Source of the DNA: an uncultured Chloroflexia bacterium
GTDB taxonomy: Bacteria; Chloroflexota; Limnocylindria; Limnocylindrales; CSP1-4
Direction: 5' to 3'
Assembly: GCA_963704935.1 (NCBI GenBank)
Contig: CAVPIF010000003.1
Span: 1,128,004-1,192,003, forward strand
DNA length: 64,000 nucleotides
The notes under the pieces were generated by a model that was not told where the DNA came from, ran no database searches, and worked only from the letters and a program-made list of their open reading frames with translations. This document shows, piece after piece, positions 24,123 through 39,413 of this stretch (position 1 is the stretch's first letter; each line of letters begins with the position of its first letter). Made by a program: the position numbers and the translations under genes.

Positions 24123-24668
24123 ATGATCGCGGCGGCGCGCATCGTCTGGCTTCTGACCGGTGGCGTCTGGGCGACGCACGCGCTCGTTGGATTCGCCGAG
24201 CCCGAGTACTGGAACCCGGTCACCACCCTCGACTTTGCCGCAGTCTGGCTGTATAGCGCCGGTTTCCTGACCCTGGCGCTCACGGTAACCTTGCTCGGGC
24301 GTCTCGTTCCAACCCGCTCGGTGCGACGGGCGGCGATCGTGATGGCAATCGCGGCGTTGGTGACCGGGGTCGCGAACGGCATCGAGGACGGGCTCGGCGT
24401 GAAGTCGGTGGGGACCGTGTATGTCATCGGCGCGCTGGCGCTCCTGGTCGGCACGCTCGCACTTGTCGTTGCGCTGGCGCGAGCCGGTCCTGCGCGGCTC
24501 GCGTGGATGGCGGGTGGCCTCGCCATCGGGCTCCTACTCGTCAGCATCGGGGGCGGCCTGGTCATCCTCGGCACGCTGGGCGCCCTCGCGTTGAGGCCGG
24601 CCTGGTTCCTGGTCGCCGATCCGGAGCCACCCACCCCGACAGCCCCCGCGCGAAGGAGCGTCGAGTGA
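24123..24668 (+). CDS. Hypothetical polytopic membrane protein
   Basis: 181-aa ORF with 5-6 hydrophobic helices. The ATG is preceded in frame by a stop at 23994. Confidence 0.6.
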   Translation: MIAAARIVWLLTGGVWATHALVGFAEPEYWNPVTTLDFAAVWLYSAGFLTLALTVTLLGRLVPTRSVRRAAIVMAIAALVTGVANGIEDGLGVKSVGTVYVIGALALLVGTLALVVALARAGPARLAWMAGGLAIGLLLVSIGGGLVILGTLGALALRPAWFLVADPEPPTPTAPARRSVE

Positions 24669-24929
24669 GGAGCGGAGAGCAGCGGCGCGACGGGAGGCCG
24701 TGCGTGGTGGGCTCCTTGACTCCCACCGGGCCGGCCACGGGTACCTACGCGGCGCCCTCGCCGCAGGCGGCACGCGCGCAGCTCGCCTCGAGCTGCCCTG
24801 CCGAGATCGACCACCTATCCACCCCCCGGGGCCCGTGCGGGTTCGGACCCGTGGCCCGCAGGCGTAGCACCGCAGGCGTAGCACCGCAGGCGAATAGACC
24901 GCGCCAACCACGCCCTCAACGATTTGCGG

Positions 24930-25373
24930 GTGAAGCTCTGCACGGTCTGCGGCGTCGTCACCAGCCGCCCTCGTAGCCGCTGTACCGAGCACGCCCGGCA
25001 GTCCAACCGCAGCCGACATAACGCGCTGTACTGCACGCGGGCCTGGCAGCGTCTCAGCGCCCGCGTGCTGCTGGCGTGGCGTGGTGAGCACGGCAATTGG
25101 TGCCCGGGCTATCAGCGTCCAGCCCACCGCGCTGCCGACCTCACCGTCGATCACGTCGTGCCGCTGGCCGCGGGCGGCGCGCCGTTCGACATCGGCAACA
25201 CCGCGGTGCTATGCCGCTCCTGCAACTCGACGAAGGGTGCGTCAGTCGACGCGGACCTGGGTGGGGTAGCCCACATGGCGACGCGGCTCAACGCTGACCG
25301 CGCCGCGCGACTGTGTGCACGCGGCCGGGTTTCGCGTTTTGTGGGGGGTTTTCGCCAGTGGGGTACTGCATGA
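24930..25373 (+). CDS. HNH endonuclease (phage-type), copy 1
   Basis: KLCTVCG..RCTEH..DLTVDHVVPLAAGGAPFDIGNTAVLCRSCNSTKG gives CxxC..H..DH..N..CxxCN. The GTG at 24930 aligns with the start of copy 2 at 36225. Confidence 0.85.
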   Translation: MKLCTVCGVVTSRPRSRCTEHARQSNRSRHNALYCTRAWQRLSARVLLAWRGEHGNWCPGYQRPAHRAADLTVDHVVPLAAGGAPFDIGNTAVLCRSCNSTKGASVDADLGGVAHMATRLNADRAARLCARGRVSRFVGGFRQWGTA

Positions 25374-25777
25374 GCGCTGACGCCGCCGAGGCATTGGCCG
25401 CCTCCGCGACGATGGCCCTCCGCGCGATCCTCGCACCGCTGCGCCATTGCCCGGCCTGCGGCGCCGAGCTCCCATATCTCGGCGGGCGGGGCAGACCGCG
25501 CCGGTGGTGCGACGCCCACCATCCGCGTCCCTGCGCGGCTTCGCCCGCGGGCGTCCCAGGGCTCCGGCGTGCCCGCGGCCACGCTCGCGAGGGCGTGCGC
25601 GCGGAGATCCCGCCCCGCGATCTCGCTGACTGTCCGCCCGTGGGCGCCCACGTCGGCCGACGTGGCGCAATGAACTCGAGGGTGGCATGGACGCGACCCG
25701 ACCCAGATAGTGGCCCGGGGCTGCCCTATGGCATGGGCCGCGCACTCCGTGCCGGGCCGACGATCCCCTCCTCGTAG
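25370..25777 (+). CDS. Possible small zinc-ribbon protein, copy 1 (doubtful)
   Basis: The ATG overlaps the HNH stop (ATGA). It contains HCPACGAELPYLGGRGRPRRWC. The downstream reading frame differs from copy 2 because of a 1-nt indel, and it overlaps the Fic 3' end. Confidence 0.3.
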   Translation: MSADAAEALAASATMALRAILAPLRHCPACGAELPYLGGRGRPRRWCDAHHPRPCAASPAGVPGLRRARGHAREGVRAEIPPRDLADCPPVGAHVGRRGAMNSRVAWTRPDPDSGPGLPYGMGRALRAGPTIPSS

Positions 25778-26937
25778 GCCCTGAGAAGGTCGAACAGCTC
25801 GGTCGCTGCGTACTGGCGGTCGTACGTGCCCTCGCTCAGCTGGCGGATGACCCCAGCCTCGGCCAGCGCCTTGAGCGCGGCGAGCGTCTGCTGCTGGCTG
25901 ACGCCGATCGCCGCGCGGGCGGTCGGCGCGGACAGCGCCGGCAGCGCGGGGAGCAGCGCGATGAGCTTGCTCGCCGCTGATCCAGCCCTTGGGCGGCCGG
26001 CGCGCTCACGCCACTCGCTCTGGAGCGCCGCCACCTGGTCCGCGAGCTCGATCGACGCGGCCGCCGCTCGCCCGGCTGCCTCGGAGAAGGAGCCGATCCA
26101 CGCGGCAACGCGCCCTTCGCGGAACGCCGTGAGCCCCTCGACGTAGGCGGTGGGCCGGGCCGCCAGGACGATGCTGACCGGCGGGACAAACCGGGCGGCG
26201 ACACCGCGGCGCCGCAGCACCACGTGGATGAGGGCCCGGCCGACGCGGCCGTTGCCGTCGATGAAGGGGTGGATGGTTTCGAACTGCGCGTGGGCGATGG
26301 CCGCCTGCGCCACCGCGGGCAGGTCGTCCCGGGCGACGAAGGCAGCGAGGTCCTCAAGCAGCGGCATGACGATGTCCTCGGGCGGCGGCACGAAGACCGC
26401 ATCGGACGGGTTCCCGAGCCGGCCACCGATCCAGTTCTGCTCCTCGCGCACTCGGCCGGGTCGCGCCCGCTCGTCGCCCGCCATGAGCACCGCGTGGATC
26501 GCCAGCAGGTCGGCGACGGTCACCGGCTCCGTGCGGTCCCCGATCGTGATCGCCTCCTCCATCGCGGACACGTTCGCCGCGACGATCCTGGCGCTGCCCC
26601 GTGCCGCCCGAGGGTCGATCAGCGCCCGGGCGAGGTTGAGCGAGGAGACGTCGTAGCCCTCGATCCGGGACGACGCCACGGCCTCCGATCGCAGGAGCAG
26701 CGGGCCGATCGCTTCGAGGCCGCCCACCGAGGCGCGCTCGTTGAGCGCCCGGATCGCCGCCTCCGCATCCGCCGACAGGTCGGCGACTTCGAACGGGACG
26801 ACGGGGCTGAGCGCGGCGATCTCGTCAGGGACGAATGCCTGGTACCGGAACGAGGCACGCGCCCGGCGTCCACCCACCGCGCCAGGGTCTCCTTCCCAAG
26901 TCCGCTCGACGGTCCTCGGCACACGGCCTCCTGTCAC
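25726..26937 (-). CDS. Fic-family protein (Fic_N, Fic core, C-terminal winged helix), copy 1
   Basis: 403-aa ORF with the canonical Fic motif HPFIDGNGRVGRAL and upstream SSRIEGY. The predicted protein is identical to copy 2 at 37017..38228. Confidence 0.95.
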   Translation of the reverse strand: MTGGRVPRTVERTWEGDPGAVGGRRARASFRYQAFVPDEIAALSPVVPFEVADLSADAEAAIRALNERASVGGLEAIGPLLLRSEAVASSRIEGYDVSSLNLARALIDPRAARGSARIVAANVSAMEEAITIGDRTEPVTVADLLAIHAVLMAGDERARPGRVREEQNWIGGRLGNPSDAVFVPPPEDIVMPLLEDLAAFVARDDLPAVAQAAIAHAQFETIHPFIDGNGRVGRALIHVVLRRRGVAARFVPPVSIVLAARPTAYVEGLTAFREGRVAAWIGSFSEAAGRAAAASIELADQVAALQSEWRERAGRPRAGSAASKLIALLPALPALSAPTARAAIGVSQQQTLAALKALAEAGVIRQLSEGTYDRQYAATELFDLLRAYEEGIVGPARSARPMP

Positions 26938-27076
26938 AACCCTTCAGTCTCTTTGCATAAATGAAGGAATAAGACGAGGCTGCACCCATAACCCTTCAAT
27001 GTCAACTGGAAATCCAAGGGAAGCGAGGGGCGCCAATGTCGCGACGCAGGTGTCGCCGATCTCGCAACTCAAGAAT

Positions 27077-27092
27077 TGGTCGGGGCGAGAGG
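27077..27092 (+). repeat. att-like exact copy of the 3'-terminal 16 nt of tRNA-Pro(CGG)
   Basis: TGGTCGGGGCGAGAGG, followed by GATAGCCCCGCCACCAACGACCTTCCGATCACGATGCGCC with patchy similarity to the adjoining tRNA sequence (CGACCT, CGATGCGC). The LuxR ATG is 81 nt downstream. Confidence 0.75.
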
Positions 27093-27172
27093 GATAGCCC
27101 CGCCACCAACGACCTTCCGATCACGATGCGCCTCTCCGAGCCGCCCGAGCCGTACGACTGGCTGCGGAGCGC

Positions 27173-27418
27173 ATGACACGCCGGTTGTCGCGCCCCGCCG
27201 GACGTGCCACCGACCGTGAGGTCGGCGTGGTCGCCGCGGTCCTGGCGGCCGGGTCGGAGAAGGCGGCCGCCCACCGCCTGGGGCTGTCGCACTCGACCGT
27301 GAAGCACCATCTGGCGAACGCGCGGTCCAAGGTGGGAGCGACGACGACCGCGCAACTGGTGTGGATCCTCGCATCGCGGCTGCTGGATGCGGAGGGAGGT
27401 AGTCAGGCCGACGAATAG
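27173..27418 (+). CDS. Small LuxR/GerE-type HTH protein (copy L2)
   Basis: MTRRLSRPAGRATDREVGVVAAVLAAGSEKAAAHRLGLSHSTVKHHLANARSKVGATTTAQLVWILASRLLDAEGG. Confidence 0.85.
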   Translation: MTRRLSRPAGRATDREVGVVAAVLAAGSEKAAAHRLGLSHSTVKHHLANARSKVGATTTAQLVWILASRLLDAEGGSQADE

Positions 27419-27499
27419 TGCCTGTTGTGGGTCGGGGCGGCGATCGACACTCAGATAATCCGCCGGGACCGCCATCAGAACGCAGTGCATCCAGAGGGC

Positions 27500-27805
27500 T
27501 CAGCCCATTTCCCGCAGGATCGACGCCATATTGCGGCGGTACGTGTCGAGGGCAGCGCGTCCCTCGGGTGTGAGGCGGTACACCGTATGCGGCAGTCTCG
27601 CGACGAACGACTTGTCGACGGCGACATAGCCGGCCTCCTCGAGCCGAGCGGCATGTGATCCGAGGTTGCCTCGAGTCAGGCCAGTCTGCCGCAGGAGGAA
27701 CATGAAGTCGGCCTCATCGATCGCGCTCAGTACGGCCAGGATCGCGAGGCGGCTTGGCTCGTGAACGAGGCGATCGATGGCCCCGGGAGACGGACGTTCA
27801 TCCAC
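27500..27805 (-). CDS. Winged-helix (MarR/ArsR-like) transcriptional regulator
   Basis: VHEPSRLAILAVLSAIDEADFMFLLRQTGLTRGNLGSHAARLEEAGYVAVDKSF. It overlaps the upstream membrane-protein gene by 8 nt. Confidence 0.8.
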   Translation of the reverse strand: MDERPSPGAIDRLVHEPSRLAILAVLSAIDEADFMFLLRQTGLTRGNLGSHAARLEEAGYVAVDKSFVARLPHTVYRLTPEGRAALDTYRRNMASILREMG

Positions 27806-28439
27806 GATCGGCGTCGCCCGGAACCGGGTGGCGCCGCACGAAGCTCACGAGCGCGGCGACACCGATGACCATCGACAGGCCGCCCAGAGTTGCCAGCTGC
27901 CAGGTCATCGGCATGAAGTCGACACCGGAGCCGATCGCGGTGAACAGGACCCCAGTACCGATGGAGGCCATCGCCAGCAGGCGGTGGCGAAGTAGTCCGG
28001 ACCGCTGGCTCGCGGCCCAGAATCCCAGCCCGATCAGCACCCCGGACAGAAGCGGCAAGACCCGCCTCCAGTCGGTCGTGCTGCCGGGGTCACCGAGCAT
28101 GGCGACGACGACCACGATGAACGCGATCGCCAGGACGAGGACGGTGACGACGCCCCGCGCGCCCAGGGTCGACGCCTTCGACGTATCGGTCGAGTAGCCG
28201 ATCCGCGGATAGGTCAGCCGCTCCTTGATGCGCAGGGCGAACCTCCCGCCAAAGATCCCGAACAGGCCCCCGATGACGCCCACGAAAACGGGGCTGACAG
28301 CCCACACGACGGCGAGCACGATCAAGATCGCCCCTGCCAGCAGCTCGAGCAGGCCATCAAGGTAGGTCGCGGCGCGGCTCCGCCGCTCGATCGCTGCGAG
28401 ATCCGCCGCGCTCGGTGCCCGCTGGTCCATCACTCCCAC
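27798..28439 (-). CDS. Hypothetical polytopic membrane protein (operon with the winged-helix regulator)
   Basis: 213-aa ORF with ~6 TM helices. Confidence 0.7.
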   Translation of the reverse strand: MGVMDQRAPSAADLAAIERRSRAATYLDGLLELLAGAILIVLAVVWAVSPVFVGVIGGLFGIFGGRFALRIKERLTYPRIGYSTDTSKASTLGARGVVTVLVLAIAFIVVVVAMLGDPGSTTDWRRVLPLLSGVLIGLGFWAASQRSGLLRHRLLAMASIGTGVLFTAIGSGVDFMPMTWQLATLGGLSMVIGVAALVSFVRRHPVPGDADRG

Positions 28440-28460
28440 CTCCCGCGACCTCGTCTCCAG

Positions 28461-28487
28461 CTAGTCTGCACTATAGACTAGTCTGCA
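28461..28487. promoter_or_regulatory. Low-GC direct and inverted repeat upstream of the membrane/winged-helix operon (candidate operator)
   Basis: CTAGTCTGCA occurs twice (28461, 28478). An embedded palindrome TAGTCT-gcactat-AGACTA lies ~20 nt upstream of the operon start. Confidence 0.4.
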
Positions 28488-28728
28488 TCACACTCGCGCG
28501 AGCGTCAAGGAGGCTCCCGTCCAGTTGAGCTGTGGGGCTGCCTGGACGTGGCACGGCTGCCAAACAGCGCCAGGAGCCTTCCAACTCGCGCCCCTGGCCT
28601 TGTTCCCCGCGCGGGTCTGGTATTCCTCGGGAAGCACCTTCGAAAGCGCGCGGATGATGGCAGCCGTTGTCAGTGGGCTGACACCTGCGTAGCATAGGGC
28701 CCGACCTACCCTCGGAGACCTGCCCGCC

Positions 28729-29289
28729 ATGCCCGATCCCGCCGCCGCCGCCGAGACCCAGCTTCGCAACATCGAGGCTACGACGGGGATGAGCATCGCC
28801 GCGTTCGCGGCGATGGTCGCCGAGCGTGGCATCGACGGCCACGGGAAGATCCTCGCGTTCCTCAAGGCGGAATACGGCTTGACCCACGGGAATGCCAACC
28901 TGGTCGCCTTCAAGGTCCGCGAACTCGCCGCCGGCGGTCCCGCCCCGTCCGACGCTCTCCTCGACGCCCAGTACTCGGGTGCGAAGGCGGCGCTCCGGCC
29001 AGTCTTCGAGCGGCTTTCCGACATCGCAGCAGCCCTGGGGCCGGACGTGGAGGTCGTGGTCCAGAAGACCGCTGTAGCGTTCCGGCGGCAGCGGAACTTC
29101 GCGGTCGTCCAGGCCGCCTCCGCCAAGCGCGTCCAGCTGGGGCTCAATCTCGACGCGGCGCCCGACGACCCGCGGGTGATGGCGACGCCGGGGGCGATGT
29201 GCGCGTTCCGGGTGGACCTGACCGACACGGACAGCGTCGACTCGGATGTGACGCGATGGTTGCGTGAGGGGTACGAGCGGGCGGGCTGA
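28729..29289 (+). CDS. DUF4287 / DUF5655-type protein
   Basis: ATTGMSIAAFAAMVAERGIDGHGKILAFLKAEYGLTHGNANLVA is the DUF4287 pattern. The C-terminal half (VVQKTAVAFRRQRNFAVV) is DUF5655-like. Confidence 0.75.
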   Translation: MPDPAAAAETQLRNIEATTGMSIAAFAAMVAERGIDGHGKILAFLKAEYGLTHGNANLVAFKVRELAAGGPAPSDALLDAQYSGAKAALRPVFERLSDIAAALGPDVEVVVQKTAVAFRRQRNFAVVQAASAKRVQLGLNLDAAPDDPRVMATPGAMCAFRVDLTDTDSVDSDVTRWLREGYERAG

Positions 29290-29313
29290 GGCCCCAGCGG
29301 CAGCGTGCACCGG

Positions 29314-29382
29314 TGGGGGCATACGACGACGGCGCAGCTCTTGTGGATCCTGGCTCGGCGGCTGCCGGAGCCTGAGGGCGGA
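29314..29382 (+). pseudogene. 3' fragment of the small LuxR gene (F1)
   Basis: ..WGHTTTAQLLWILARRLPEPEGG matches only the last ~23 codons of the family. Confidence 0.65.
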
Positions 29383-29543
29383 ATGCAGGCATTCCTCGTG
29401 ACCGAGTGCGACCCGGCCGGACGCGAGCACGAGCGACGGCCGTACGCCCAGCGACACGCAGTCCTTGGGCGCCCGCGGGACGACATTGCGCCCGCGTGCC
29501 GACAGGGCGCCCGCGTGCCGCGATGACCACCGGGGTGGCTCGG

Positions 29544-30182
29544 TCAACGCACACGAGAGAAGAGGTAGGCGTACGCGGACCTCGTGTACGCGATGCCACG
29601 CCCCGTGCGTTCGACCAGCTCGGCGATGTCCTCGACAGGGATCTTCGGGACCAGGTAGGTCTGGAGGTCCTCGCTCGCGCAGCGGTAGCCGTTCTCTCGG
29701 GAGTGGATGACGCCGGCGAGCTCGTACCGCGGATCGCTCGACGCCAGGGCCACGTCGCCGTGGCTCGGGTTCGCCAGTAGCACCCCGCCGACGCGCAGGT
29801 ACCCCGTGCAGTGGCGCGACACCGGACCGGCGAAGAGCGACACGAGCAAGTCGAAGCTCTCGGCTTGGAGCGGCAGGGGGTCGGTGTAGTCGGCATGGAG
29901 GAAACGGAGGTCGGGATCGATCGCCGAGTCACCCTGCGCGGCGACGATCTCCCGCACCCCATCGGTATCGTCGAAGAACCGGGCCGCTCGCCGATCAGCG
30001 TCGACGTACGTTACCGCGGGCCACACGAACGACGCTGCGACATCGCACCATGACCCCGGGTACAGGACCGTGTCGGCATCGACCGCATCGGCCACCGTCC
30101 GGAACAACCGGTGTCGATCGCCAGGATGTCGGTCCTGTTCCGCCCACAGCGCCGCCGTCGCCTTGCGCACGGCATCGAGCAT
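29544..30182 (-). CDS. Hypothetical protein, possibly methyltransferase-fold
   Basis: ATG at 30182 (MLDAVRKATAALW). VLYPGSWCDVAASF and FDLLVSLFAG are loosely like SAM-methyltransferase motifs I and post-I. The assignment is weak. Confidence 0.5.
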   Translation of the reverse strand: MLDAVRKATAALWAEQDRHPGDRHRLFRTVADAVDADTVLYPGSWCDVAASFVWPAVTYVDADRRAARFFDDTDGVREIVAAQGDSAIDPDLRFLHADYTDPLPLQAESFDLLVSLFAGPVSRHCTGYLRVGGVLLANPSHGDVALASSDPRYELAGVIHSRENGYRCASEDLQTYLVPKIPVEDIAELVERTGRGIAYTRSAYAYLFSRVR

Positions 30183-30223
30183 ACCGACCAGAGCACCGCC
30201 TCGGACGAGCTTCCCGGGCGGCC

Positions 30224-30338
30224 GCCGCACTCGACGGTGCAGCACCATCTGGCTAGCGCGCGCTCGAAGGTCGGCGCGGAGACGACGGCGCAGTTGGTGT
30301 GGATCCTGGCGCCGCGGCTGCCCGAGCCTGAGGGCGGT
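30224..30338 (+). pseudogene. 3' half of the small LuxR gene (F2)
   Basis: HSTVQHHLASARSKVGAETTAQLVWILAPRLPEPEGG. The N-terminal ~35 codons are absent. Confidence 0.7.
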
Positions 30339-30386
30339 GTCGATGCGGCGGAATCGTCGATGTATGCAACGACCCGACGGGCATTG

Positions 30387-30788
30387 TCAGCGCGAAGGCC
30401 CGCTTGGATGCCCTGCCCGTGCGCGGGACTCGTAGGTCGCCCGGATGGTCGGGTCGAGGAGATCCGGTGTGAGCCGGTCCAGCTGCGAGTCCCGGAATCG
30501 GAGACAGTTCTTGCCGCGGTCGAGCCCTGCCACCAGTTCGCCGAGATCATCCCGCGCGTCGAGTAGTCCGTCGAGGCCCACGACATAGAGACTCAGGTGG
30601 TGGCGCTGGCTGGCGACGGCGATGTAAGGCTCGCCGGCGAGGGTATAGAAGGGCATCCCGTGCTGGAACGACGGCTCCGCACCCGGGGAGAGCGCCAGGG
30701 TCCGGGCGTCGACGAGCTTGAGGGCCGGTCGACGGGCCTCTGGCGCCGCATCCCGGTATTCGGAAATGCTGTTGGCTTCGAGCTTCAT
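30387..30788 (-). CDS. DUF1801 (YdhG-like) domain protein
   Basis: ISEYRDAAPEARRPALKLV..GMPFYTLAGEPYIAVASQRHHLSLYV. The ATG at 30788 overlaps the MerR gene stop (ATGA). Confidence 0.75.
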   Translation of the reverse strand: MKLEANSISEYRDAAPEARRPALKLVDARTLALSPGAEPSFQHGMPFYTLAGEPYIAVASQRHHLSLYVVGLDGLLDARDDLGELVAGLDRGKNCLRFRDSQLDRLTPDLLDPTIRATYESRARAGHPSGPSR

Positions 30789-31618
30789 GCGTGGCTCCTC
30801 GTGCGGCGGACCGGCCACAGGACGTCAACTTCGAGGCCCGACGGGCCGGCCGCCGTCGGGTCGTTGCGGAAGATCTCCCGGGGCGGCCCGGCTGGCTGCA
30901 ATCCGTGGGCGGCCGACCAGGCTCCGAGGACGTGGTACGCCGCGGCGATCTCCCCGATGGGTCCGCGGTGACGTGTCTGAATGACATGGACGCCCGGTAG
31001 GGTCCTGCCTCGAATCTCGACAAGGTCCAAGTCGGGCCCACGAACGGGAATGGCGACCTCCAGATCGCCATCGGTCGCCTCGTCGATCACCGCGTGCAGC
31101 ACGAGCATGGGGTCGGCGGCCGGGGTCACGTCGGCATCCGCAAGCAGCGCCGCGAGGGATCCAAAGGCCTCTGCCACATCGGAGTCGACGGACCGGTGCG
31201 AGGTCCGGAAGCGGATCGCGGCGACGGGCTGGGGTGAGAGCCGCTGCTCGATCACCAGCTGCGCGGGGAAGGGATCGTCCTGCGTCACGAGCGTCTGGAG
31301 GCGCCGGACTCGCTCCCGTTGGACCTGCATGTCCGCCTCGAGCCTGGCTAGGTGGGTCTCGAGCCGGGCCAGAACTGCCTCTCGATCGGCCCGGTCGCCA
31401 AGGATCTCGCCGACCACCGCGAGTGGGACGCCGAGCTCACGCAGGAGCCGGATCGTCTCGGCGTCCCGGACTTGCTCAAGCGTGTAGCGCCGGTAGCCAG
31501 TAGCCGGATCGACATAGGTCGGGCGCAGCAGCCCGAGCGCGTCATACCTCCGCAGCGAACGTACCGAAAGCCGGACGAGTCGCGAGAAGCGCCCGATTGT
31601 GAACAGCGCAGTCATCAC
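30785..31618 (-). CDS. MerR-family regulator with GyrI-like effector-binding domain
   Basis: FTIGRFSRLVRLSVRSLRRYDALGLLRPTYVDPATGYRRY (MerR HTH), a coiled linker, and a C-terminal GyrI-like domain (IRFRTSH..PREIF). Confidence 0.9.
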   Translation of the reverse strand: MMTALFTIGRFSRLVRLSVRSLRRYDALGLLRPTYVDPATGYRRYTLEQVRDAETIRLLRELGVPLAVVGEILGDRADREAVLARLETHLARLEADMQVQRERVRRLQTLVTQDDPFPAQLVIEQRLSPQPVAAIRFRTSHRSVDSDVAEAFGSLAALLADADVTPAADPMLVLHAVIDEATDGDLEVAIPVRGPDLDLVEIRGRTLPGVHVIQTRHRGPIGEIAAAYHVLGAWSAAHGLQPAGPPREIFRNDPTAAGPSGLEVDVLWPVRRTRSHA

Positions 31619-31709
31619 CCACCCATGGTGCAGTCTCCCCCGGAGGGAGAGTCAAGCTCTGCGATCGCGGAAGCGATTCCGCGGGGCCGCACTACCTGCC
31701 ACGCACGGC

Positions 31710-31846
31710 CATGGCCCAATCGGCCAGCTAGAAACCGCAGCCCGCCGCCCGCACCCTTGGGGCATGACGGCGCGCCGGTCTGATCCACATCGACTCCCGG
31801 TTTCCCCCACCGTGTACGTCCGCGCCGTCAACACCGTGGAGGCCCG
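31710..31846 (+). repeat. Junction block copy P_d preceding lysis cassette 2
   Basis: CATGGCCCAATCGGCCAGCTAGAAACCGCAG..CCCTTGGGGCATGACGGCGCGCCGGTCTGATCCACATCGACTCC... Carries the 28-codon leader ORF from 31764. Confidence 0.75.
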
Positions 31847-31972
31847 ATGAGCGGGGCCGAGCTCGTCGCGGCGTTCCTCGCCGGCGTCGGCATGGGCGTC
31901 GCCCTCGACCGCTGGCTCCTGCCGTCCCTCGTCGATGCCTGGATCGACCGACTGCGCCGGCATGGGCAATGA
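31847..31972 (+). CDS. Lysis cassette 2, gene 1: 41-aa single-TM peptide
   Basis: MSGAELVAAFLAGVGMGVALDRWLLPSLVDAWIDRLRRHGQ, paralogue of 20650..20775. Confidence 0.55.
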   Translation: MSGAELVAAFLAGVGMGVALDRWLLPSLVDAWIDRLRRHGQ

Positions 31973-32192
31973 GCCTCTCGACGACGCACCCGAGCGCGTC
32001 CGGGCCGATGCCTACAGCTCAGCCCGGATCGGGGCCGCGGCCGCATTCACGCTCGTCCTGGTCGTGCTGCTCGTCCTCGATGTCGTCGTCCCGGGGTATG
32101 ACGTCAGCCCTGGGACCCTCCTCCCCCTTCTCGGCGCGATCCTCGCGCTCCTGGGGCTCGAGGCCGGTTCGCTCTGGAGGGGCGTGAGGTGA
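31962..32192 (+). CDS. Lysis cassette 2, gene 2: two-TM holin-like protein
   Basis: MGNEPLDDAPER..IGAAAAFTLVLVVLLVLDVVVPGYDVSPGTLLPLLGAILALLGLEAGSLWRGVR. Confidence 0.6.
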   Translation: MGNEPLDDAPERVRADAYSSARIGAAAAFTLVLVVLLVLDVVVPGYDVSPGTLLPLLGAILALLGLEAGSLWRGVR

Positions 32193-32953
32193 CCACCGTC
32201 ACAGCGCTCCTGACCAACAAGGCCTACGGCTACCCGACCCGTGGGGCCGGGCGGCGGGTCACGGCACCGATCCTCGCCTGCATCCACATCACCGGCAACC
32301 GCCGGACGGCCGCGAACCCCGACCGGCACCAGGCGGCGCGCGACGAGCGCAACTACGCGAACCGTGCGGGCTCGAACGGCCCGTCCGCCCACTACTACGT
32401 CGCCCGCGACGGCTGGGCGATCGAGGCCATCGACCCGGCCAAGCACGCGGCCTGGTCGAACGGCGACGTCGCGAGCCCGAACACGGCGAACGCCGGGGTG
32501 GCGAAGGTGCTCGCACTGCGCTCAGGGGGCTACAACGCCAACGAGGCGTACTGGCTCGAGTTCGAGTGCGTCGGCTATGGCTCGACGTACCCGATCACGA
32601 AGGCACAGCAGCAGTTCTGCGCCACCCGGATCGCCGTGATGGCGAAGGCGACGGGGCTGCCGGTGAACCGCGACACGGTCCATGGCCACAGCGACATAAA
32701 CAGCGTCAACCGGGCGTCCTGCCCCTGCCCCAAGGCGGGCCGCGAGGCGTTCCTCGGCGCTGTCATCGCCCGCGCCAACGCGATCCTTCGGCCACCGATC
32801 ACCACGGTCACCGTGAAGTCGGGCGACAGCCTGTCCGCGATCGCCGCCGCGCACGGCCTGACGCTCAAGGCCCTCCTGGCCTTCCCGGAGAACGCCAAGT
32901 ACCGGGCCAAGCCCGGACTCATCCACCCGGGCGACATCGTGCGCGTGAAGTGA
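32189..32953 (+). CDS. Lysis cassette 2, gene 3: Amidase_2 + LysM endolysin
   Basis: The GTG start overlaps the previous stop. ILACIHITGN..GPSAHYYVARDGWAIEAIDP..AAWSNGDV..VHGHSDI. The C-terminal LysM domain is nearly identical to copy 1, while the catalytic middle is strongly diverged. Confidence 0.9.
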   Translation: MTTVTALLTNKAYGYPTRGAGRRVTAPILACIHITGNRRTAANPDRHQAARDERNYANRAGSNGPSAHYYVARDGWAIEAIDPAKHAAWSNGDVASPNTANAGVAKVLALRSGGYNANEAYWLEFECVGYGSTYPITKAQQQFCATRIAVMAKATGLPVNRDTVHGHSDINSVNRASCPCPKAGREAFLGAVIARANAILRPPITTVTVKSGDSLSAIAAAHGLTLKALLAFPENAKYRAKPGLIHPGDIVRVK

Positions 32954-32964
32954 CAGGAGAAGCC

Positions 32965-33150
32965 ATGGACACCGAGCCCGGCACGATCTGGGGCCGGGAG
33001 CCGACGATGCTGCTCGCCCTCGTCCAGGCGGTCATCGCGCTGGTCGTCGCGTTCGGCCTCAACCTCGCGCCCGACCAGATCGGCGCGATCCTCGCGGTCA
33101 CCGCGGTGATCCTCGGGCTCGTCACCCGCAGCCGGGTGAGCCCCGCGTGA
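32965..33150 (+). CDS. Lysis cassette 2, gene 4: 61-aa two-TM protein
   Basis: MDTEPGTIWGREPTMLLALVQAVIALVVAFGLNLAPDQIGAILAVTAVILGLVTRSRVSPA. AGGAGA lies upstream of the ATG. Confidence 0.6.
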   Translation: MDTEPGTIWGREPTMLLALVQAVIALVVAFGLNLAPDQIGAILAVTAVILGLVTRSRVSPA

Positions 33151-33395
33151 GGGACGGTCACCTGCGCGGGACGCTCCCGCGGACGCCGACCGCTCGCCAG
33201 GTCGATGTCCTCGCCGCCTTCGTCGCTGCCGGCGGGTCGGTTGCCGGCGCGGCGGCTCGTGTCGGCGTCCGGCCGAGCACGGCGAAGCGCCACCTCGCGG
33301 ACCTGCGGGCGCGGTCCGGCCTCACCACCGAGCAACTGATCTACCGCGGGAGGGCGGAGGGTTGGCTTGTGGTGGCGGGGCTGGAGCCGGGCTGA
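33147..33395 (+). CDS. Lysis cassette 2, gene 5: LuxR/GerE-type HTH protein (cassette-type)
   Basis: ..TARQVDVLAAFVAAGGSVAGAAARVGVRPSTAKRHLADLRARSGLTTEQLIY. The GTG overlaps the previous stop. Confidence 0.8.
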   Translation: MRDGHLRGTLPRTPTARQVDVLAAFVAAGGSVAGAAARVGVRPSTAKRHLADLRARSGLTTEQLIYRGRAEGWLVVAGLEPG

Positions 33396-33402
33396 GCCGC
33401 TC

Positions 33403-33873
33403 CTAGGCTTGGGCGCGCTCGGCGGGCCTGAAGAAGCGCCCGAGGTCGATGAGCAGCGCGAGGGCGGCAATCGCGGCAACGACGGGACCTGAGATCATCG
33501 GCGGCGGGAGGGGCTGACCGGGCGCCAAGCCATAGGCGAGGCCCAGCACGAGCGAGCTGAGCGCCCATACCGGCAGGCCCCACATCGCGATCCACGCCCA
33601 GCGGCGACCGCCCCGGTAGGGAATGACCACGATGACGCTGAACAGGACGCCGAGCAGCGCCAGCGTCGGGCCCCCGGCGCGCGCGCCGTAGTCGATCATC
33701 CGGTAGGCCGCGGGGCTGGCGGCTTCGAGCTCGGCGGTCGTCAGTCCGGTGACCCCGAGCGGGATCGTGGGATCGAAGGCGACGCCAATCAGCGTGTCGC
33801 CGATGCCGAACAGCGCGACGACCACCCCGAGTGCCAGGAGGACCCACCAGGCCCGCCGCCGCACAGCGTTCAC
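33403..33873 (-). CDS. Hypothetical four-TM membrane protein
   Basis: 156-aa ORF, RRRAWWVLLALGVVVALFG.., with four hydrophobic helices. Confidence 0.6.
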   Translation of the reverse strand: MNAVRRRAWWVLLALGVVVALFGIGDTLIGVAFDPTIPLGVTGLTTAELEAASPAAYRMIDYGARAGGPTLALLGVLFSVIVVIPYRGGRRWAWIAMWGLPVWALSSLVLGLAYGLAPGQPLPPPMISGPVVAAIAALALLIDLGRFFRPAERAQA

Positions 33874-33928
33874 GGGGCGACCGGCAGGCGGAGGCGAACA
33901 GGGGCAGCAAGGGCACGAACCTGGGTGG

Positions 33929-34747
33929 TCACTGGGTGGTCACCGCTAGCGTCCCCTCCATGCCCGGCCGATGCCCAGGGATCGCGCACCAGTACGTGTA
34001 GGATCCGGCGGCCGCAAGGTTCAGCACAACCGCGACCGTTGAGTTGCCCGGCACGGGCCACGACAGGTGCTGGCCACCGAGCTCGATGTCGAAGGTGTGG
34101 GCCCCGGCTCCGGGATTGACGACGTAGATCGTCCCCGGACCGGTCACCAGCCGTAGGCTCTTCTGCGTGAACGTCGCCGCGGTGGCGTCCAGCTCCACGG
34201 GAGCCTGGCCAGGGGCGCTGAGCACGCCATTGACAACGCCGAGACCGGGGGATCCCTGCAGGGCATCGAAGCCGCGCAGCGAGACGTAGCTCGTGCCGAT
34301 CAGCATGCCCAGGGCGAGGATCGCCAGCGCTTCCCCAATGGGAGCTCGCAGCGCTCGGACGATGGGCTCGCCGCGTCGCAGCTCCAGGAATGCGGCGAAC
34401 CCGGCGATCGCACCGGCGACGCCAACGACGATGGCGATGATGTCGGTCCAGGCGTGGCTCGTGGATACGGGATCGACCAGCGCGTCCGTGACGAACGGGA
34501 GGTTCATGGCCACGAAGGCAAGCAGCAGGATGCCGCCCGCCAGGAACACGCGCCGACCAGGGCGGGCAAGTCCCAGCGCCGCAACGACGGCGAGGATCAC
34601 CCCGAACACAACGAGCGCCGGCTCGATCCCGATGCTGCTCACGACCGCGACCAGAACCAGGGTCTCGATCGCGGCGGCGAACGGCATCAGCCACATCGCG
34701 GTGCTTCTCGTGCCACGCGCGGCGGCCAGGTTCCGTGGTGAGGTCAT
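33929..34747 (-). CDS. Membrane-anchored cupredoxin (type-1 copper) domain protein
   Basis: ~5 N-terminal TM helices, then a C-terminal domain ending YTYWCAIPGHRPGMEGTLAV (the Cys-x2-Pro-Gly-His-x3-Gly-Met copper site). Confidence 0.8.
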   Translation of the reverse strand: MTSPRNLAAARGTRSTAMWLMPFAAAIETLVLVAVVSSIGIEPALVVFGVILAVVAALGLARPGRRVFLAGGILLLAFVAMNLPFVTDALVDPVSTSHAWTDIIAIVVGVAGAIAGFAAFLELRRGEPIVRALRAPIGEALAILALGMLIGTSYVSLRGFDALQGSPGLGVVNGVLSAPGQAPVELDATAATFTQKSLRLVTGPGTIYVVNPGAGAHTFDIELGGQHLSWPVPGNSTVAVVLNLAAAGSYTYWCAIPGHRPGMEGTLAVTTQ

Positions 34748-34770
34748 CGGGGGACGCAGCCTCGCTAGAT

Positions 34771-34797
34771 GTCACACTAGTCTTGTCACTAGTGAGT
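34771..34797. promoter_or_regulatory. Twin ACTAGT palindromes in the cupredoxin/TetR divergent intergenic region (candidate TetR operator)
   Basis: GTCACACTAGTCTTGTCACTAGTGAGT, with TCACTAGTGA a perfect 10-bp palindrome. It lies 25 nt upstream of the TetR ATG. Confidence 0.45.
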
Positions 34798-34821
34798 GAG
34801 ATAGGTAGAGTGAACCGCGTC

Positions 34822-35466
34822 ATGTCCGCTGTCAAGCCCTCCCGCGCGCCCAAGCCCACCCGACGCGAACGCGCTCAGGCGACCAGGATCCGGATCACCA
34901 AGGTCGCCTACAGGCTGTTCAGCGAGCGCGGATACGCCGAGACAACGATGGCCGAGATCGCCGAGGCGGCCGGCGTCGCCGTCCAGACCGTCTACTTCAC
35001 GTTCCACACCAAGGGCGAGTTGCTCAGCCGTGCCTTCGACTTCGCCGTCCTGGGCGAGGATGGACCGCTTCCGCCGGAAGAGCAGGATTGGTACGCGCGG
35101 ATGACCGCCGAGCCCGACCTTGTCGTGGCGCTCCGCCACCTGGTCACCGGCGTTGGCACGATCAACGTTCGGGCGACGCCGCTCGACACCGTTGTTCGGG
35201 CGAGCGCCGAGAGTGATCCCGACACGGCGCGGGTCTGGGCATTCCACGAGCGGCTACGCGCTGACGCGCACCGGGCCATCCTCGAGATCCTCGTTGCAAA
35301 GGCGCCGCTCCGTGACGGCATGACACCGGAGCGCGCAACGCACCTGCTCCTGTTCTACCTCGGCTCCGATGCCTACCGGCCGCTCGTCCGTGACTTCGGC
35401 TGGACGCACGAGGAGTGGGTCGACTGGACCATCGCGACCATCGCCGACCAACTCTTCGCCAGCTGA
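34822..35466 (+). CDS. TetR-family transcriptional regulator
   Basis: TRIRITKVAYRLFSERGYAETTMAEIAEAAGVAVQTVYFTFHTKGELL. Confidence 0.9.
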   Translation: MSAVKPSRAPKPTRRERAQATRIRITKVAYRLFSERGYAETTMAEIAEAAGVAVQTVYFTFHTKGELLSRAFDFAVLGEDGPLPPEEQDWYARMTAEPDLVVALRHLVTGVGTINVRATPLDTVVRASAESDPDTARVWAFHERLRADAHRAILEILVAKAPLRDGMTPERATHLLLFYLGSDAYRPLVRDFGWTHEEWVDWTIATIADQLFAS

Positions 35467-35474
35467 ACGGGCCG

Positions 35475-36158
35475 ATGACCCTGACAGCGGTTCAGGCGCC
35501 GCCTCGACCGACACGCCCGAAGCTCGTCGTCCCGGGCGCCGTGGCTGGGGCAGTGGCGCCGCTCACGTTCGCCGCCGCCCACGCCCTCCTGATCAGCGAC
35601 ATCTGGTATTCGGCGGTGGGGATGATGATCGCCGGGGCAGCGTGTGGCGCCACGATCGGATGGTCCTACGGACGCCTGTTCGATCCATCGATCCGAACCT
35701 GGCTGGGCTACAACGCCAGCTACGTCATCGCGCTCGCGGTGCTCGCGTTGGCGTCGGTGGCAGCATTCGAGCCCAGGATGACCATGGCAGAGTTGCTCAC
35801 CACGGACGGCCCGCCGAGCGATCTCATTGGCGCTGCCTTGCCCATGACCATCCTGTTTACGCTCGGCGCCGCGGCGACCCTGAGCGTCCTGTTCGATCGG
35901 ACGCTGGCGGGGTTCGGCGCGATCTTCGTCACCTGCTCGGTGCTGGTCGCGCTCCTTGGGCTGAACGTCTCGGTCATCGGCCTGATCCAGATCCCGACGA
36001 ACTCGCTCTACCTGGTGGCCGAGCTGTTCGGCCTGATCGTCGTCCTAGCCGGGTCGTTCGCGGCGGTCGTCATCGCGCTCGCGTGGAAGCAGTTCGGCGC
36101 TCGCTCCGACGTGCCTGAGCGGCGCATGGACGATTGGTCGGAGGCCGGCCACTCGTAG
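35475..36158 (+). CDS. Hypothetical six-TM membrane protein (downstream of TetR)
   Basis: ATG at 35475 (MTLTAVQAPP..), followed by six hydrophobic helices. Confidence 0.7.
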   Translation: MTLTAVQAPPRPTRPKLVVPGAVAGAVAPLTFAAAHALLISDIWYSAVGMMIAGAACGATIGWSYGRLFDPSIRTWLGYNASYVIALAVLALASVAAFEPRMTMAELLTTDGPPSDLIGAALPMTILFTLGAAATLSVLFDRTLAGFGAIFVTCSVLVALLGLNVSVIGLIQIPTNSLYLVAELFGLIVVLAGSFAAVVIALAWKQFGARSDVPERRMDDWSEAGHS

Positions 36159-36224
36159 CTGGTCCCGCAGGCGTAGCACCGCAAGCGAATAGACCGCGCC
36201 CGCCTTCCAGCCGACGATTCGCGG

Positions 36225-36668
36225 GTGAAGCTGTGCACGGTCTGCGGTGTCGCCACCAGCCGCACTGGTAGCCGCTGCGCCGAGCACGCACGGCAGTCCA
36301 ACCGCAGCAGGCACAACGCCCTGTACAGCACGCGGGCATGGCAGCGTCTCAGCGCCCGCGTGCTGCTGGCGTGGCGTGGTGAGCACGGCAATTGGTGCCC
36401 GGGCTATCAGCGTCCAGCCCACCGCGCTGCCGACCTCACCGTCGACCACGTCGTGTCGCTCGCCGCTGGCGGTGCGCCGTTCGACATCGCCAACACCGCG
36501 GTGCTATGCCGCTCCTGCAACTCGACGAAGGGTGCGTCAGTCGACGCGGACCGGGGTGGGGTAACCCATATGGGGCCACGGCTGAACGCTGACCGCGCCG
36601 CGCGACCGTGTGCACGCGGCCGGGTTTCGCCCGTTATGGGGGGTTTTCGCCAGTGGGGTGGTGCATGA
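36225..36668 (+). CDS. HNH endonuclease (phage-type), copy 2
   Basis: Paralogue of 24930..25373 with the same CxxC/DH/N/CxxCN layout. By eye ~90 percent nucleotide identity. Confidence 0.85.
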   Translation: MKLCTVCGVATSRTGSRCAEHARQSNRSRHNALYSTRAWQRLSARVLLAWRGEHGNWCPGYQRPAHRAADLTVDHVVSLAAGGAPFDIANTAVLCRSCNSTKGASVDADRGGVTHMGPRLNADRAARPCARGRVSPVMGGFRQWGGA

Positions 36669-36964
36669 GCGCTGACGCCGAGGCTGTCGCTGCGTCGGCG
36701 ACGATCGCCCTCCGCGCGAGCCTCGCGCCGCCGCGCCACTGCCCGGCCTGCGGCGCCAAGCTCCCGTATCTCGGTGGGCGGGGCAGGCCGCGCCGGTGGT
36801 GCGACGCCCATCATCCGCGTCCCTCGCGGCTTCGACCGCGGGCGTCCCAGGGCTCCGGCGTGCCCGCGGCCACGCTCGCGAGGGCGTGCGCGCGGAGATC
36901 CCGCCCCGCGATCTCGCTGACTGTCCGCCCGTGGGCGCCCACGTCGGCCGACGTGGCGCAATGA
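36665..36964 (+). CDS. Possible small zinc-ribbon protein, copy 2 (doubtful)
   Basis: MSADAEAVAASATIALRASLAPPRHCPACGAKLPYLGGRGRPRRWC... The C-terminal frame differs from copy 1. Confidence 0.3.
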   Translation: MSADAEAVAASATIALRASLAPPRHCPACGAKLPYLGGRGRPRRWCDAHHPRPSRLRPRASQGSGVPAATLARACARRSRPAISLTVRPWAPTSADVAQ

Positions 36965-37016
36965 ACTCGAGGGTGGCATGGACGCGACCCGACCCAGATA
37001 GTGGCCCGGGGCTGCC

Positions 37017-38228
37017 CTATGGCATGGGCCGCGCACTCCGTGCCGGGCCGACGATCCCCTCCTCGTAGGCCCTGAGAAGGTCGAACAGCTCGGTCGCTGC
37101 GTACTGGCGGTCGTACGTGCCCTCGCTCAGCTGGCGGATGACCCCAGCCTCGGCCAGCGCCTTGAGCGCGGCGAGCGTCTGCTGCTGGCTGACGCCGATC
37201 GCCGCGCGGGCGGTCGGCGCGGACAGCGCCGGCAGCGCGGGGAGCAGCGCGATGAGCTTGCTCGCCGCTGATCCAGCCCTTGGGCGGCCGGCGCGCTCAC
37301 GCCACTCGCTCTGGAGCGCCGCCACCTGGTCCGCGAGCTCGATCGACGCGGCCGCCGCTCGCCCGGCTGCCTCGGAGAAGGAGCCGATCCACGCGGCAAC
37401 GCGCCCTTCGCGGAACGCCGTGAGCCCCTCGACGTAGGCGGTGGGCCGGGCCGCCAGGACGATGCTGACCGGCGGGACAAACCGGGCGGCGACACCGCGG
37501 CGCCGCAGCACCACGTGGATGAGGGCCCGGCCGACGCGGCCGTTGCCGTCGATGAAGGGGTGGATGGTTTCGAACTGCGCGTGGGCGATGGCCGCCTGCG
37601 CCACCGCGGGCAGGTCGTCCCGGGCGACGAAGGCAGCGAGGTCCTCAAGCAGCGGCATGACGATGTCCTCGGGCGGCGGCACGAAGACCGCATCGGACGG
37701 GTTCCCGAGCCGGCCACCGATCCAGTTCTGCTCCTCGCGCACTCGGCCGGGTCGCGCCCGCTCGTCGCCCGCCATGAGCACCGCGTGGATCGCCAGCAGG
37801 TCGGCGACGGTCACCGGCTCCGTGCGGTCCCCGATCGTGATCGCCTCCTCCATCGCGGACACGTTCGCCGCGACGATCCTGGCGCTGCCCCGTGCCGCCC
37901 GAGGGTCGATCAGCGCCCGGGCGAGGTTGAGCGAGGAGACGTCGTAGCCCTCGATCCGGGACGACGCCACGGCCTCCGATCGCAGGAGCAGCGGGCCGAT
38001 CGCTTCGAGGCCGCCCACCGAGGCGCGCTCGTTGAGCGCCCGGATCGCCGCCTCCGCATCCGCCGACAGGTCGGCGACTTCGAACGGGACGACGGGGCTG
38101 AGCGCGGCGATCTCGTCAGGGACGAATGCCTGGTACCGGAACGAGGCACGCGCCCGGCGTCCACCCACCGCGCCAGGGTCTCCTTCCCAAGTCCGCTCGA
38201 CGGTCCTCGGCACACGGCCTCCTGTCAC
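37017..38228 (-). CDS. Fic-family protein, copy 2 (identical to copy 1)
   Basis: The 403-aa translation is identical to 25726..26937, at an offset of 11291 nt. Confidence 0.95.
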   Translation of the reverse strand: MTGGRVPRTVERTWEGDPGAVGGRRARASFRYQAFVPDEIAALSPVVPFEVADLSADAEAAIRALNERASVGGLEAIGPLLLRSEAVASSRIEGYDVSSLNLARALIDPRAARGSARIVAANVSAMEEAITIGDRTEPVTVADLLAIHAVLMAGDERARPGRVREEQNWIGGRLGNPSDAVFVPPPEDIVMPLLEDLAAFVARDDLPAVAQAAIAHAQFETIHPFIDGNGRVGRALIHVVLRRRGVAARFVPPVSIVLAARPTAYVEGLTAFREGRVAAWIGSFSEAAGRAAAASIELADQVAALQSEWRERAGRPRAGSAASKLIALLPALPALSAPTARAAIGVSQQQTLAALKALAEAGVIRQLSEGTYDRQYAATELFDLLRAYEEGIVGPARSARPMP

Positions 38229-38367
38229 AACCCTTCAGTCTCTTTGCATAAATGAAGGAATAAGACGAGGCTGCACCCATAACCCTTCAATGTCAACTGG
38301 AAATCCAAGGGAAGCGAGGGGCGCCAATGTCGCGACGCAGGTGTCGCCGATCTCGCAACTCAAGAAT

Positions 38368-38383
38368 TGGTCGGGGCGAGAGG
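38368..38383 (+). repeat. att-like exact copy of the 3'-terminal 16 nt of tRNA-Pro(CGG)
   Basis: TGGTCGGGGCGAGAGG in the same context as 27077. Confidence 0.75.
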
Positions 38384-38463
38384 GATAGCCCCGCCACCAA
38401 CGACCTTCCCATCACGATGCGGCTCGCTGAGCCGTCAGAGCCGCTCGAGCTGGTCCGCAGCGC

Positions 38464-38712
38464 ATGACGCGACGGTCATCCCGCCACGCCGCCGAACTTG
38501 CCACCGACCGTGAGGTCGGGGTGGTCGCCGCCGTCATCGCGGCTGGCTCCGAGAAGGCGGCTGCTCACCGCCTGGGCCTGTCGCACTCGACCGTGAAGCA
38601 CCATCTGGCGAATGCGCGGTGCAAGGTGGGGGCGGAGACGACGGCGCAGTTGGTATGGATCCTCGGTCCGCGGCTGCCGCAGCCGGACGGCGCGGCACAA
38701 GCGGACGACTGA
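38464..38712 (+). CDS. Small LuxR/GerE-type HTH protein (copy L3)
   Basis: MTRRSSRHAAELATDREVGVVAAVIAAGSEKAAAHRLGLSHSTVKHHLANARCKVGAETTAQLVWILGPRLPQPDG. Confidence 0.85.
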   Translation: MTRRSSRHAAELATDREVGVVAAVIAAGSEKAAAHRLGLSHSTVKHHLANARCKVGAETTAQLVWILGPRLPQPDGAAQADD

Positions 38713-38793
38713 GACCGGCAGGACACGTGGACAGCTCTTGACCGAGCGGGCCGCACGGCACAGGATGATGGTCTGATCACATGGCAGGGGACA

Positions 38794-39006: not shown

Positions 39007-39060
39007 GGCGATCGGGCAGCCGACTGACCATCAGACGTCCCGTCGCCCCACACTTGGGGC

Positions 39061-39330: not shown

Positions 39331-39340
39331 CGGGGACGCT

Positions 39341-39364: not shown

Positions 39365-39413
39365 GGGCCGTGGGGCAGCCGACCGCCGATGACCGAGAGA
39401 GGGGGGGACTTCG

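Follow-up and report, generated by a model that had tools for sequence, protein, structure and literature searches.

A 1.57-kb Fic-containing block ending at a tRNA-Pro attachment core is identical in two neighbouring phage-derived elements of an uncultured Chloroflexota genome

The 64,000-nt stretch analysed here (the window; positions 1,128,004 to 1,192,003 of contig CAVPIF010000003.1, GenBank assembly GCA_963704935.1; 70% G+C) belongs to an uncultured Chloroflexia bacterium and contains the same succession of genes twice. Each copy comprises an HNH endonuclease gene, a small open reading frame (ORF) with a Zn-ribbon pattern, a Fic family gene on the opposite strand, a 16-nt attachment (att) core that equals the 3' end of tRNA-Pro(CGG), and a GerE/LuxR-type helix-turn-helix (HTH) gene (Table 1). 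This gene content had been proposed in a first-pass annotation and was borne out by Pfam and by the match to the tRNA 3' end, the Zn-ribbon ORF being the one gene without a family match. The same annotation had described a simple duplicated segment of 2.55 kb. The two copies are instead successive junctions of a tandem array of phage-derived elements (E1, E2 and E3), where HNH, Zn-ribbon and Fic genes end one element and the LuxR-type gene starts the next.

Direct comparison and alignment revealed no difference between 25545-27118 and 36836-38409 (1,574 nt at an offset of 11,291), exactly as had been claimed, and the very next base differs at both ends. Pairwise alignment confirmed the boundaries and showed no scattered differences inside the block. 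Collinearity of the wider segments (24856-27418 and 36165-38712 in the first-pass annotation) also held, with a slightly smaller extent in a BLAST self-comparison (24870-27383 and 36165-38677; 95.6% identity; none of the 101 mismatches and 6 gap openings falls within the block). In global alignments, the left arm (24870-25544 and 36165-36835; 675 nt) was 90.2% identical with 62 substitutions and 4 gap columns, matching the earlier estimate of about 90% with indels. The right arm (27119-27383; 265 nt) proved diverged as proposed, although at 82.8% identity (79.5% through the LuxR stop at 27418) rather than about 85%.

Given the 11.8% divergence of the arms, the probability of finding no difference over 1,574 nt is ~1e-86, and in 5,000 permutations the longest identical run had a mean of 116 nt and a maximum of 253 nt. 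The absence of differences sets an upper 95% bound of ~0.2% on the divergence of the block, from which the exchange would be at least ~50-fold younger than the split of the arms. Substitutions in the arms fell preferentially on third codon positions (LuxR-type gene, 27 of 43; Zn-ribbon ORF, N-terminal part, 12 of 16; HNH, 16 of 34), which identifies the arms as truly diverged genes under selection and not as noise. As a control, we compared the two Kelch-repeat genes of the window (15876-17113 and 42074-43311). Their 52 differences were evenly spread (longest run 111, P=0.31), so the patchiness is specific to the Fic-block pair and not general to the assembly or the region.

These observations bear on whether assembly or polishing produced the identity, with blocks that differ in reality, or of which only one exists, being made identical by the consensus. 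The source is an uncultured Chloroflexota (Limnocylindria-like) genome, probably metagenome-assembled, which lends this explanation some credit. Each copy, however, is framed by its own diverged, codon-structured arms with clean single-base boundaries, and a collapsed repeat would yield one copy instead of two. Moreover, crossing a 1.57-kb exact repeat twice in one contig would imply spanning reads, and the other repeats of the array were not homogenised. We therefore regard an artefact as improbable.

A metagenome scan with a 23-mer query overlapping the core and the adjacent leader returned 107 loci, of which 83 distinct ones entered the conservation counts. The consensus frequency was at most 0.64 left of the core and at least 0.96 from its first base (the T of TGGTC), and conservation continued through a leader of ~90 nt and the LuxR-type gene. 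This abrupt onset marks the core as a genuine attachment site. The 26 nt past the core (27093-27118) were at least 89% conserved across the 83 distinct unrelated loci. Because of this family-wide invariance these 26 nt are uninformative, and the block effectively ends at the att core. The informative identical stretch is thus effectively the terminal 1.53 kb of E1 and E2, up to the core. Divergence to the right of the block follows from E2 and E3 having different left ends, which leaves 25545, inside the Zn-ribbon ORF, as the sole true identity switch within an element. The earlier idea of recent conversion or recombinational replacement therefore stands insofar as homogenisation remains the best reading, whereas an exchange centred on Fic and att does not.

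The leader that follows each core (27093-27172, 38384-38463 and 18392-18471) resembles a decayed tRNA-Pro body, with which it shares the blocks GCGCATCGT and AGGTCG as well as a TNDL/TSDL stretch in translation. Its conservation (at least 89% over at least 26 nt in the 83 loci) exceeds that of the following coding sequence, and the leader may hold the half-site bound by the recombinase.

ORFs were picked via third-position G+C and scanned against Pfam, PHROGs and NCBIfam. The Fic gene, which lies entirely within the identical block, matched PF02661 with 67.4 bits (cutoff 24) and the NCBIfam Fic adenylyltransferase model at 1.6e-15. Its product carries the catalytic-type motif HPFIDGNGRVGR at residue 218, which fits HxFx(D/E)GNGRxxR, and the inhibitory-type motif SSRIEG at residue 84, N-terminal to the core, which fits (S/T)xxxE(G/N). 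From these published motif definitions we take the protein to be an AMPylase type with an intramolecular inhibitory helix; no partner gene for Fic is present. A direct repeat, CA(C/T)AACCCTTCA(G/A)T, occurs in the A+T-richer stretch upstream of Fic (26935-26951 and 26987-27003, likewise 38226-38242 and 38278-38294; 52 nt apart), and a similar motif lies to the right of a core in metagenome locus L150. The repeat is a possible operator for the C-terminal winged-helix part of the Fic protein.

Neither PHROGs nor the related phages gave a match to the Zn-ribbon ORF, and its NCBIfam match stayed below the threshold; with 12 of 16 N-terminal substitutions at third positions it is probably coding. 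Its two copies are read in different frames beyond position 25533, where a 1-nt indel lies 12 nt to the left of the block, and owing to this frame shift copy 1 overlaps the 3' end of Fic. Within the block, third-position G+C of the ORF is 0.93 in the copy-2 frame and 0.79 in the copy-1 frame, the former being the coding-like value. This pattern may hint at E2 as the donor of the block, or at a broken ORF in E1.

Table 1 Features of the two junctions, the array and its attachment site (window coordinates).
Feature	Position	Strand	Description
Element E1	18376..27092	+	8.7 kb; core', LuxR1, methyltransferase, 96-nt repeat, 87-aa ORF, amidase/LysM endolysin, HTH, then cargo (PadR and others), HNH, Zn-ribbon ORF, Fic, core
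Element E2	27093..38383	+	11.3 kb; E1-like backbone with other cargo (DUF5655, MerR/GyrI, TetR, others)
Element E3	38384..43461	+	5.1 kb, truncated; LuxR3, LuxR fragments, GNAT, 86-aa ORF, truncated endolysin, Kelch copy 2, recombinase-gene remnant
Identical block, copy 1	25545..27118		Zn-ribbon ORF 3' part, Fic, Fic upstream region, flank 27024-27076 (53 nt), att core, 26 family-invariant nt
Identical block, copy 2	36836..38409		Exact counterpart of copy 1
Left diverged arm, copy 1	24870..25544	+	HNH and N-terminal part of the Zn-ribbon ORF (from ATG 25370)
Left diverged arm, copy 2	36165..36835	+	HNH and start of the Zn-ribbon ORF, which continues into the identical block
Right diverged arm, copy 1	27119..27418	+	E2 left end (leader and LuxR-type HTH); counterpart 38410-38712 is the E3 left end
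HNH endonuclease	24924-25373; 36225-36668	+	Pfam; within the left arms
Zn-ribbon ORF	25370-25777; 36665-36964		135 aa (copy 1) and 99 aa (copy 2); CPACG...WCDAHH pattern
Fic family gene	25726-26937; 37017-38228	-	PF02661; likely start GTG 26922
GerE/LuxR-type HTH gene	27173-27418; 38464-38712	+	81/82 aa (81 aa for 27173-27418); Pfam
att core, 16 nt	27077-27092; 38368-38383		TGGTCGGGGCGAGAGG; E1/E2 and E2/E3 junctions; equals the tRNA-Pro(CGG) 3' end
Further cores	18376-18391; 43446-43461		One mismatch, E1 left end; 3' end of the real tRNA-Pro
VapC(PIN)/Phd toxin-antitoxin pair	17477..18138	-	Pfam; directly left of the E1 left-end core
Recombinase-gene remnant	43336..43464	+	Last 43 codons, ends ...SGRGERI and stop, runs into the tRNA-Pro 3' end
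tRNA-Pro(CGG)	43446..43522	-	Attachment target; ARAGORN and Rfam

Seen as a whole, the region from 15.8 to 43.5 kb, next to tRNA-Pro(CGG), is an array of phage-derived elements that follow one another in tandem, have decayed and carry no integrase. Each of the three elements opens with core, leader and LuxR, and E1 and E2 each close with HNH, Zn-ribbon ORF, Fic and the 53-nt flank. A module of the 96-nt repeat, an 86-87-aa ORF, an amidase/LysM endolysin and a small HTH gene is present in three copies starting at 20512, 31709 and 41217, the last of them truncated. No phage structural genes were found in the window, nor any recombinase besides the 43-codon remnant; E1 and E2 have none, and Pfam and PHROGs gave no primase or replication genes in either. 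E1 and E2 thus fall outside the definition of a phage satellite, which has its own integrase and replication or hijacking genes and no structural genes. An integron-like cassette array, suggested by the many LuxR and core repeats, was dropped as an explanation, since these repeats are phage-element ends beside a serine recombinase site.

The slot that Fic holds at the two junctions is occupied at the E1 left end by the VapC/Phd pair, and the flank there (18333-18375) is homologous to 27036-27076. This suggests a slot for toxin-type cargo (Fic or VapBC) beside the att site. The whole array is bracketed by the two Kelch-repeat genes, which are 95.8% identical. Copy 2 lies between the truncated endolysin and the recombinase remnant and so replaces most of the right half of E3. 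Copy 1 follows a minus-strand gene (15552-15797) whose homologs lie ~80-520 nt left of the core in three metagenome loci (L093, L122 and L129).

Several repeats recur in and around the array. The non-coding repeat of ~96 nt lies at 19575-19670, 20512-20608, 31709-31804, 39046-39086 (partial) and 41217-41312, and also in L110, L129 and L193. It precedes the 86-87-aa ORF and endolysin in each element, with one extra solo copy in E1 and one partial copy in E3, and is a possible late or lysis promoter or regulatory site. In the self-comparison, the LuxR-type gene further appeared about eight times, in whole or in part. Copies with no core beside them, complete or 3'-truncated, are situated at 11811-11890, 29305-29526, 30219-30336, 39113-39285 and 39955-40239, one of them lying left of Kelch copy 1 and so outside the array; they have the look of remains from further elements.

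The metagenome loci also revealed which enzyme is associated with the core. Left of the core, the DNA is not related from locus to locus and can be sorted into several recurring types, in one of which a long ORF reads rightward into the core (L110, L112, L091 and L188). A homolog search with this ORF yielded 599 relatives, and the full-length ones (493-546 aa) carry PF00239, which identifies the core-entering ORF as a large serine recombinase. The incomplete ORFs of L110 and L188, both without the N-terminal catalytic domain, had no match in a Pfam scan. For the recombinase fragment, phmmer against PDB gave no match, BLASTP against Bxb1 integrase was not significant and NCBIfam returned XisF only (E=0.047). 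In the window, tblastn with the recombinase protein P0001 matched the remnant at E=3e-17, and its C-terminus is the same as that of the 493-aa homologs. An earlier interpretation of 43336-43445 as a native chromosomal spacer, with Kelch copy 2, spacer and tRNA forming an unoccupied site after aberrant excision, was rejected, the "spacer" being the 3' end of the recombinase ORF.

Recombinase C-termini occur in two forms, ...SGRGERI followed by a stop and ...SGRGERDSPATNDLPITMRL...SA followed by a stop (also given as ...GRGERDSPATNDLPITMRL...SA). The former results from joining the gene to the tRNA body, and it is the form present in the window at 43336-43464, directly against tRNA-Pro; the latter results from joining the gene to core, leader and LuxR, as in an element-to-element or circular junction. 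The core would accordingly be the crossover region of a large-serine-recombinase element targeting the tRNA-Pro 3' end, with LuxR marking the tRNA-distal and the recombinase the tRNA-proximal end of the element. Integration swaps the last ~27 codons of the gene (...GRGERDSPATNDLPITMRL...SA and stop) for one codon (...GRGERI and stop), as seen in proteins P0001, P0012 and others. The recombinase stop of the element-joined form overlaps the LuxR start (GCGCATGAC, ATGA), so that co-translation of the two genes would be confined to circular or tandem elements.

Comparisons with relatives place E1 and E2 in separate lineages. The HNH protein of copy 1 is 80-82% identical to that of two IMG/VR phages (L082 and L083), where HNH is followed by a ParB-methyltransferase gene, the large terminase, other genes and the major head protein; in L127, HNH is followed by a truncated methyltransferase, the recombinase 3' end and then the core. 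The lysis module of E1 is closest to that of L107 (88%) and several others and the module of E2 to that of L111 (89%), while E1 and E2 are ~84% identical to each other. These different lysis-module lineages imply that E1 and E2 are not recent duplicates. Their backbones are 83-92% identical and their cargo genes entirely different. The two HNH genes are nevertheless mutually closest (92%, versus 88-89% to L127), and the Zn-ribbon ORF junction after HNH is common to E1 and E2 only. Such a stepwise rise in similarity toward the att end would fit more than one exchange anchored there, and differing gene constraint could contribute to part of the step from 84% to 92%.

A similarly scrambled remnant lies in L193, a 3.1-Mb contig from a related genome of complete size (ENA ERZ25039600 contig_5603), at 9742-11322 and 19719-20359. 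It has the 96-nt repeat and the 87-aa ORF fused to a 313-aa recombinase fragment, then core and LuxR, and a PadR-region match (87%) to window positions 22742-23380.

Fic itself has relatives of 92%, 89% and 73% protein identity in Limnocylindrales/Chloroflexota metagenome-assembled genomes (MAGs), as found in a genome scan with Fic. At the DNA level, the similarity in two of these (L001 and L002; 87% and 83% identity) covers only 25711-27023, and the neighbourhoods are unrelated. The sharing of Fic and its upstream region in unrelated surroundings marks Fic as a moving module. This raises the question of whether each element recently acquired a small mobile Fic cassette at the same site in a separate insertion, an explanation favoured by the confinement of the MAG similarity to Fic and ~90 nt upstream and by the VapBC pair in the same slot at the E1 left end. 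The identical block, however, exceeds the module by 166 nt on the left and 95 nt on the right, reaching into the backbone. Neither terminal inverted repeats, direct repeats nor target duplications were found at 25545/27118 or 25711/27023, and there is no transposase or recombinase in or beside the block. A transposon-like Fic cassette was rejected on these grounds, and independent insertion in general appears highly improbable. The overshoot into the backbone, together with the lack of terminal repeats, argues for a homology-driven exchange rather than a cassette insertion.

We therefore favour, with a probability of roughly 0.55, recent gene conversion between E1 and E2, in which their att-proximal ends underwent a homologous, non-reciprocal exchange. 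The array elements descend from temperate phages that integrate into the tRNA-Pro(CGG) 3' end via a large serine recombinase. The att-proximal 1.53 kb of one element, comprising the 3' part of the Zn-ribbon ORF, Fic with its upstream region and the 53-nt flank, would later have been copied onto the other by non-reciprocal homologous recombination, presumably RecA-type conversion in cis. Homology flanks the tract on both sides (90.2% over 675 nt on the left; on the right the core and 26 invariant nt, then 83% over 265 nt). The left endpoint would fall inside the Zn-ribbon ORF, between 25533/25544 and 25545, and the right endpoint at or just past the att core, where both junctions would already have had the family-invariant core and leader.

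Certain points weigh against this interpretation. One assembled sequence reveals neither non-reciprocity, direction nor cis origin, and a right endpoint at the att core could be compatible with a recombinase-assisted or pre-integration event. Look-ups of the exact Fic protein (with two possible starts) returned no matching record, and none of the 107 metagenome loci has Fic beside the core. This lack of an independent record of the protein or of the Fic-core junction also counts in favour of the assembly artefact discussed above.

An alternative is an exchange in trans, before or during formation of the array, in which mosaic relatives already shared the Fic/att-arm module when one entered beside the other. 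For example, a single homologous crossover within a shared block (Campbell-type insertion) would leave an identical copy at the end of each unit and could itself have produced the tandem order. The middle modules of E1 and E2 do come from different environmental lineages, as in mosaic phages, and the block closes both units at the same place, with the att core as its end. Fic-type genes are also common cargo in IMG/VR viral contigs: distant relatives (24-36% identity) are frequent there, roughly half of them no more than 1.6 kb away from a contig end, which fits, if weakly, with cargo being placed at the ends of prophages. On the other hand, a very recent transfer between backbones diverged by 10-17% would still be required, which is not simpler, and E1 and E2 are without a recombinase or packaging genes of their own. 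The flank-plus-core junction had no match in viral contigs, and the absence of Fic beside the core in the metagenome loci counts here as well. Exchange in trans is in our judgement possible but rather unlikely; it differs from conversion within the array only in where the recent exchange took place, and a single sequence cannot separate the two.

A more far-reaching proposal is that E1 and E2 are living, spreading ~10-kb elements without integrase that would borrow the serine recombinase of a helper phage at the same tRNA-Pro site, the identical block then reflecting ongoing att-anchored exchange of the toxin slot. The backbone of such a lineage could consist of the LuxR-type regulator, the lysis cassette, HTH, HNH and the Zn-ribbon protein. 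We hold this to be doubtful and put it forward tentatively.

Gene conversion is well known between paralogous bacterial repeats such as the duplicated tuf genes, rRNA operons and prophage paralogs. The Fic block shares with these cases a long identical tract in diverged homology, endpoints within flanking homology and the lack of mobile-element ends. It differs in that the repeats are the ends of two integrated tandem elements and in that one endpoint lies at a site-specific core. Recombination among prophages, defective prophages and superinfecting phages yields mosaicism (PMC6379469, citing De Paepe et al. 2014). Such mosaics and the present array have in common abrupt changes from identical to diverged modules, decayed ('grounded') prophages as partners and cargo near prophage ends, whereas here both partners are remnants without an integrase that adjoin each other at a single tRNA. 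The window showed no Rad52-like or similar phage recombinase, and a literature search on gene conversion in tandem prophages found no report.

With regard to the attachment site, the array resembles prophages with large serine recombinases, as its relatives carry a 493-546-aa PF00239 recombinase beside the core and the breakpoints are sharp across the 107 loci. Unlike usual serine-integrase prophages, the target is a tRNA 3' end with a 16-nt core shared with the element, and the window keeps only the 43-codon remnant. A tRNA 3'-end target with a shared core is the usual pattern of tyrosine integrases. In myxophage Mx8 (intP/intX), attP likewise lies inside the integrase gene and the target is a tRNA, Mx8 Int being a tyrosine recombinase. 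Common to both systems are the position of the core inside the recombinase ORF (here its 3' end) and the alteration of the protein C-terminus upon integration, while the recombinase here is of the serine type; this likeness concerns the context and not the identical block. The combination of a serine recombinase, a tRNA 3' end and a 16-nt core in its own gene is the less usual arrangement.

In the tycheposon islands of Prochlorococcus, tRNA-adjacent tandem elements are separated by partial tRNA repeats. As in these islands, several modules of the array follow one another downstream of a single tRNA; a copy of the tRNA 3' end delimits each module, a recombinase is missing from many, and the cargo varies. 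Recombinase class, host phylum and the phage-type backbone (endolysin, HNH) set it apart.

Two further repeats lie elsewhere in the window. The first, which has no relation to the array, is a 248-nt direct repeat (4292-4539 and 9252-9497; 96% identical, 4.96 kb apart) at the 5' end of a PEP-mutase-family gene. Three in-frame repeats of ~85 nt, spaced by 174-177 nt, occur at 58349-58784 in a 658-aa ORF (57831-59807) beside tRNA-Pro(TGG).

The event itself is of a known, textbook kind, namely a conversion-like patch or mosaic exchange between neighbouring prophage remnants. Its context is the more useful by-product, in the form of a widespread family of serine-recombinase phages and remnants with ~600 recombinase homologs and 107 junction loci. 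If both copies are real, Fic is present twice in the cell without any difference in the gene or its upstream region, and this may affect dosage; two copies might conceivably be selected, for example through dosage, addiction or defence. For this uncultured Chloroflexota lineage, the block provides a dated example of att-adjacent cargo that was homogenised or spread among co-resident elements.

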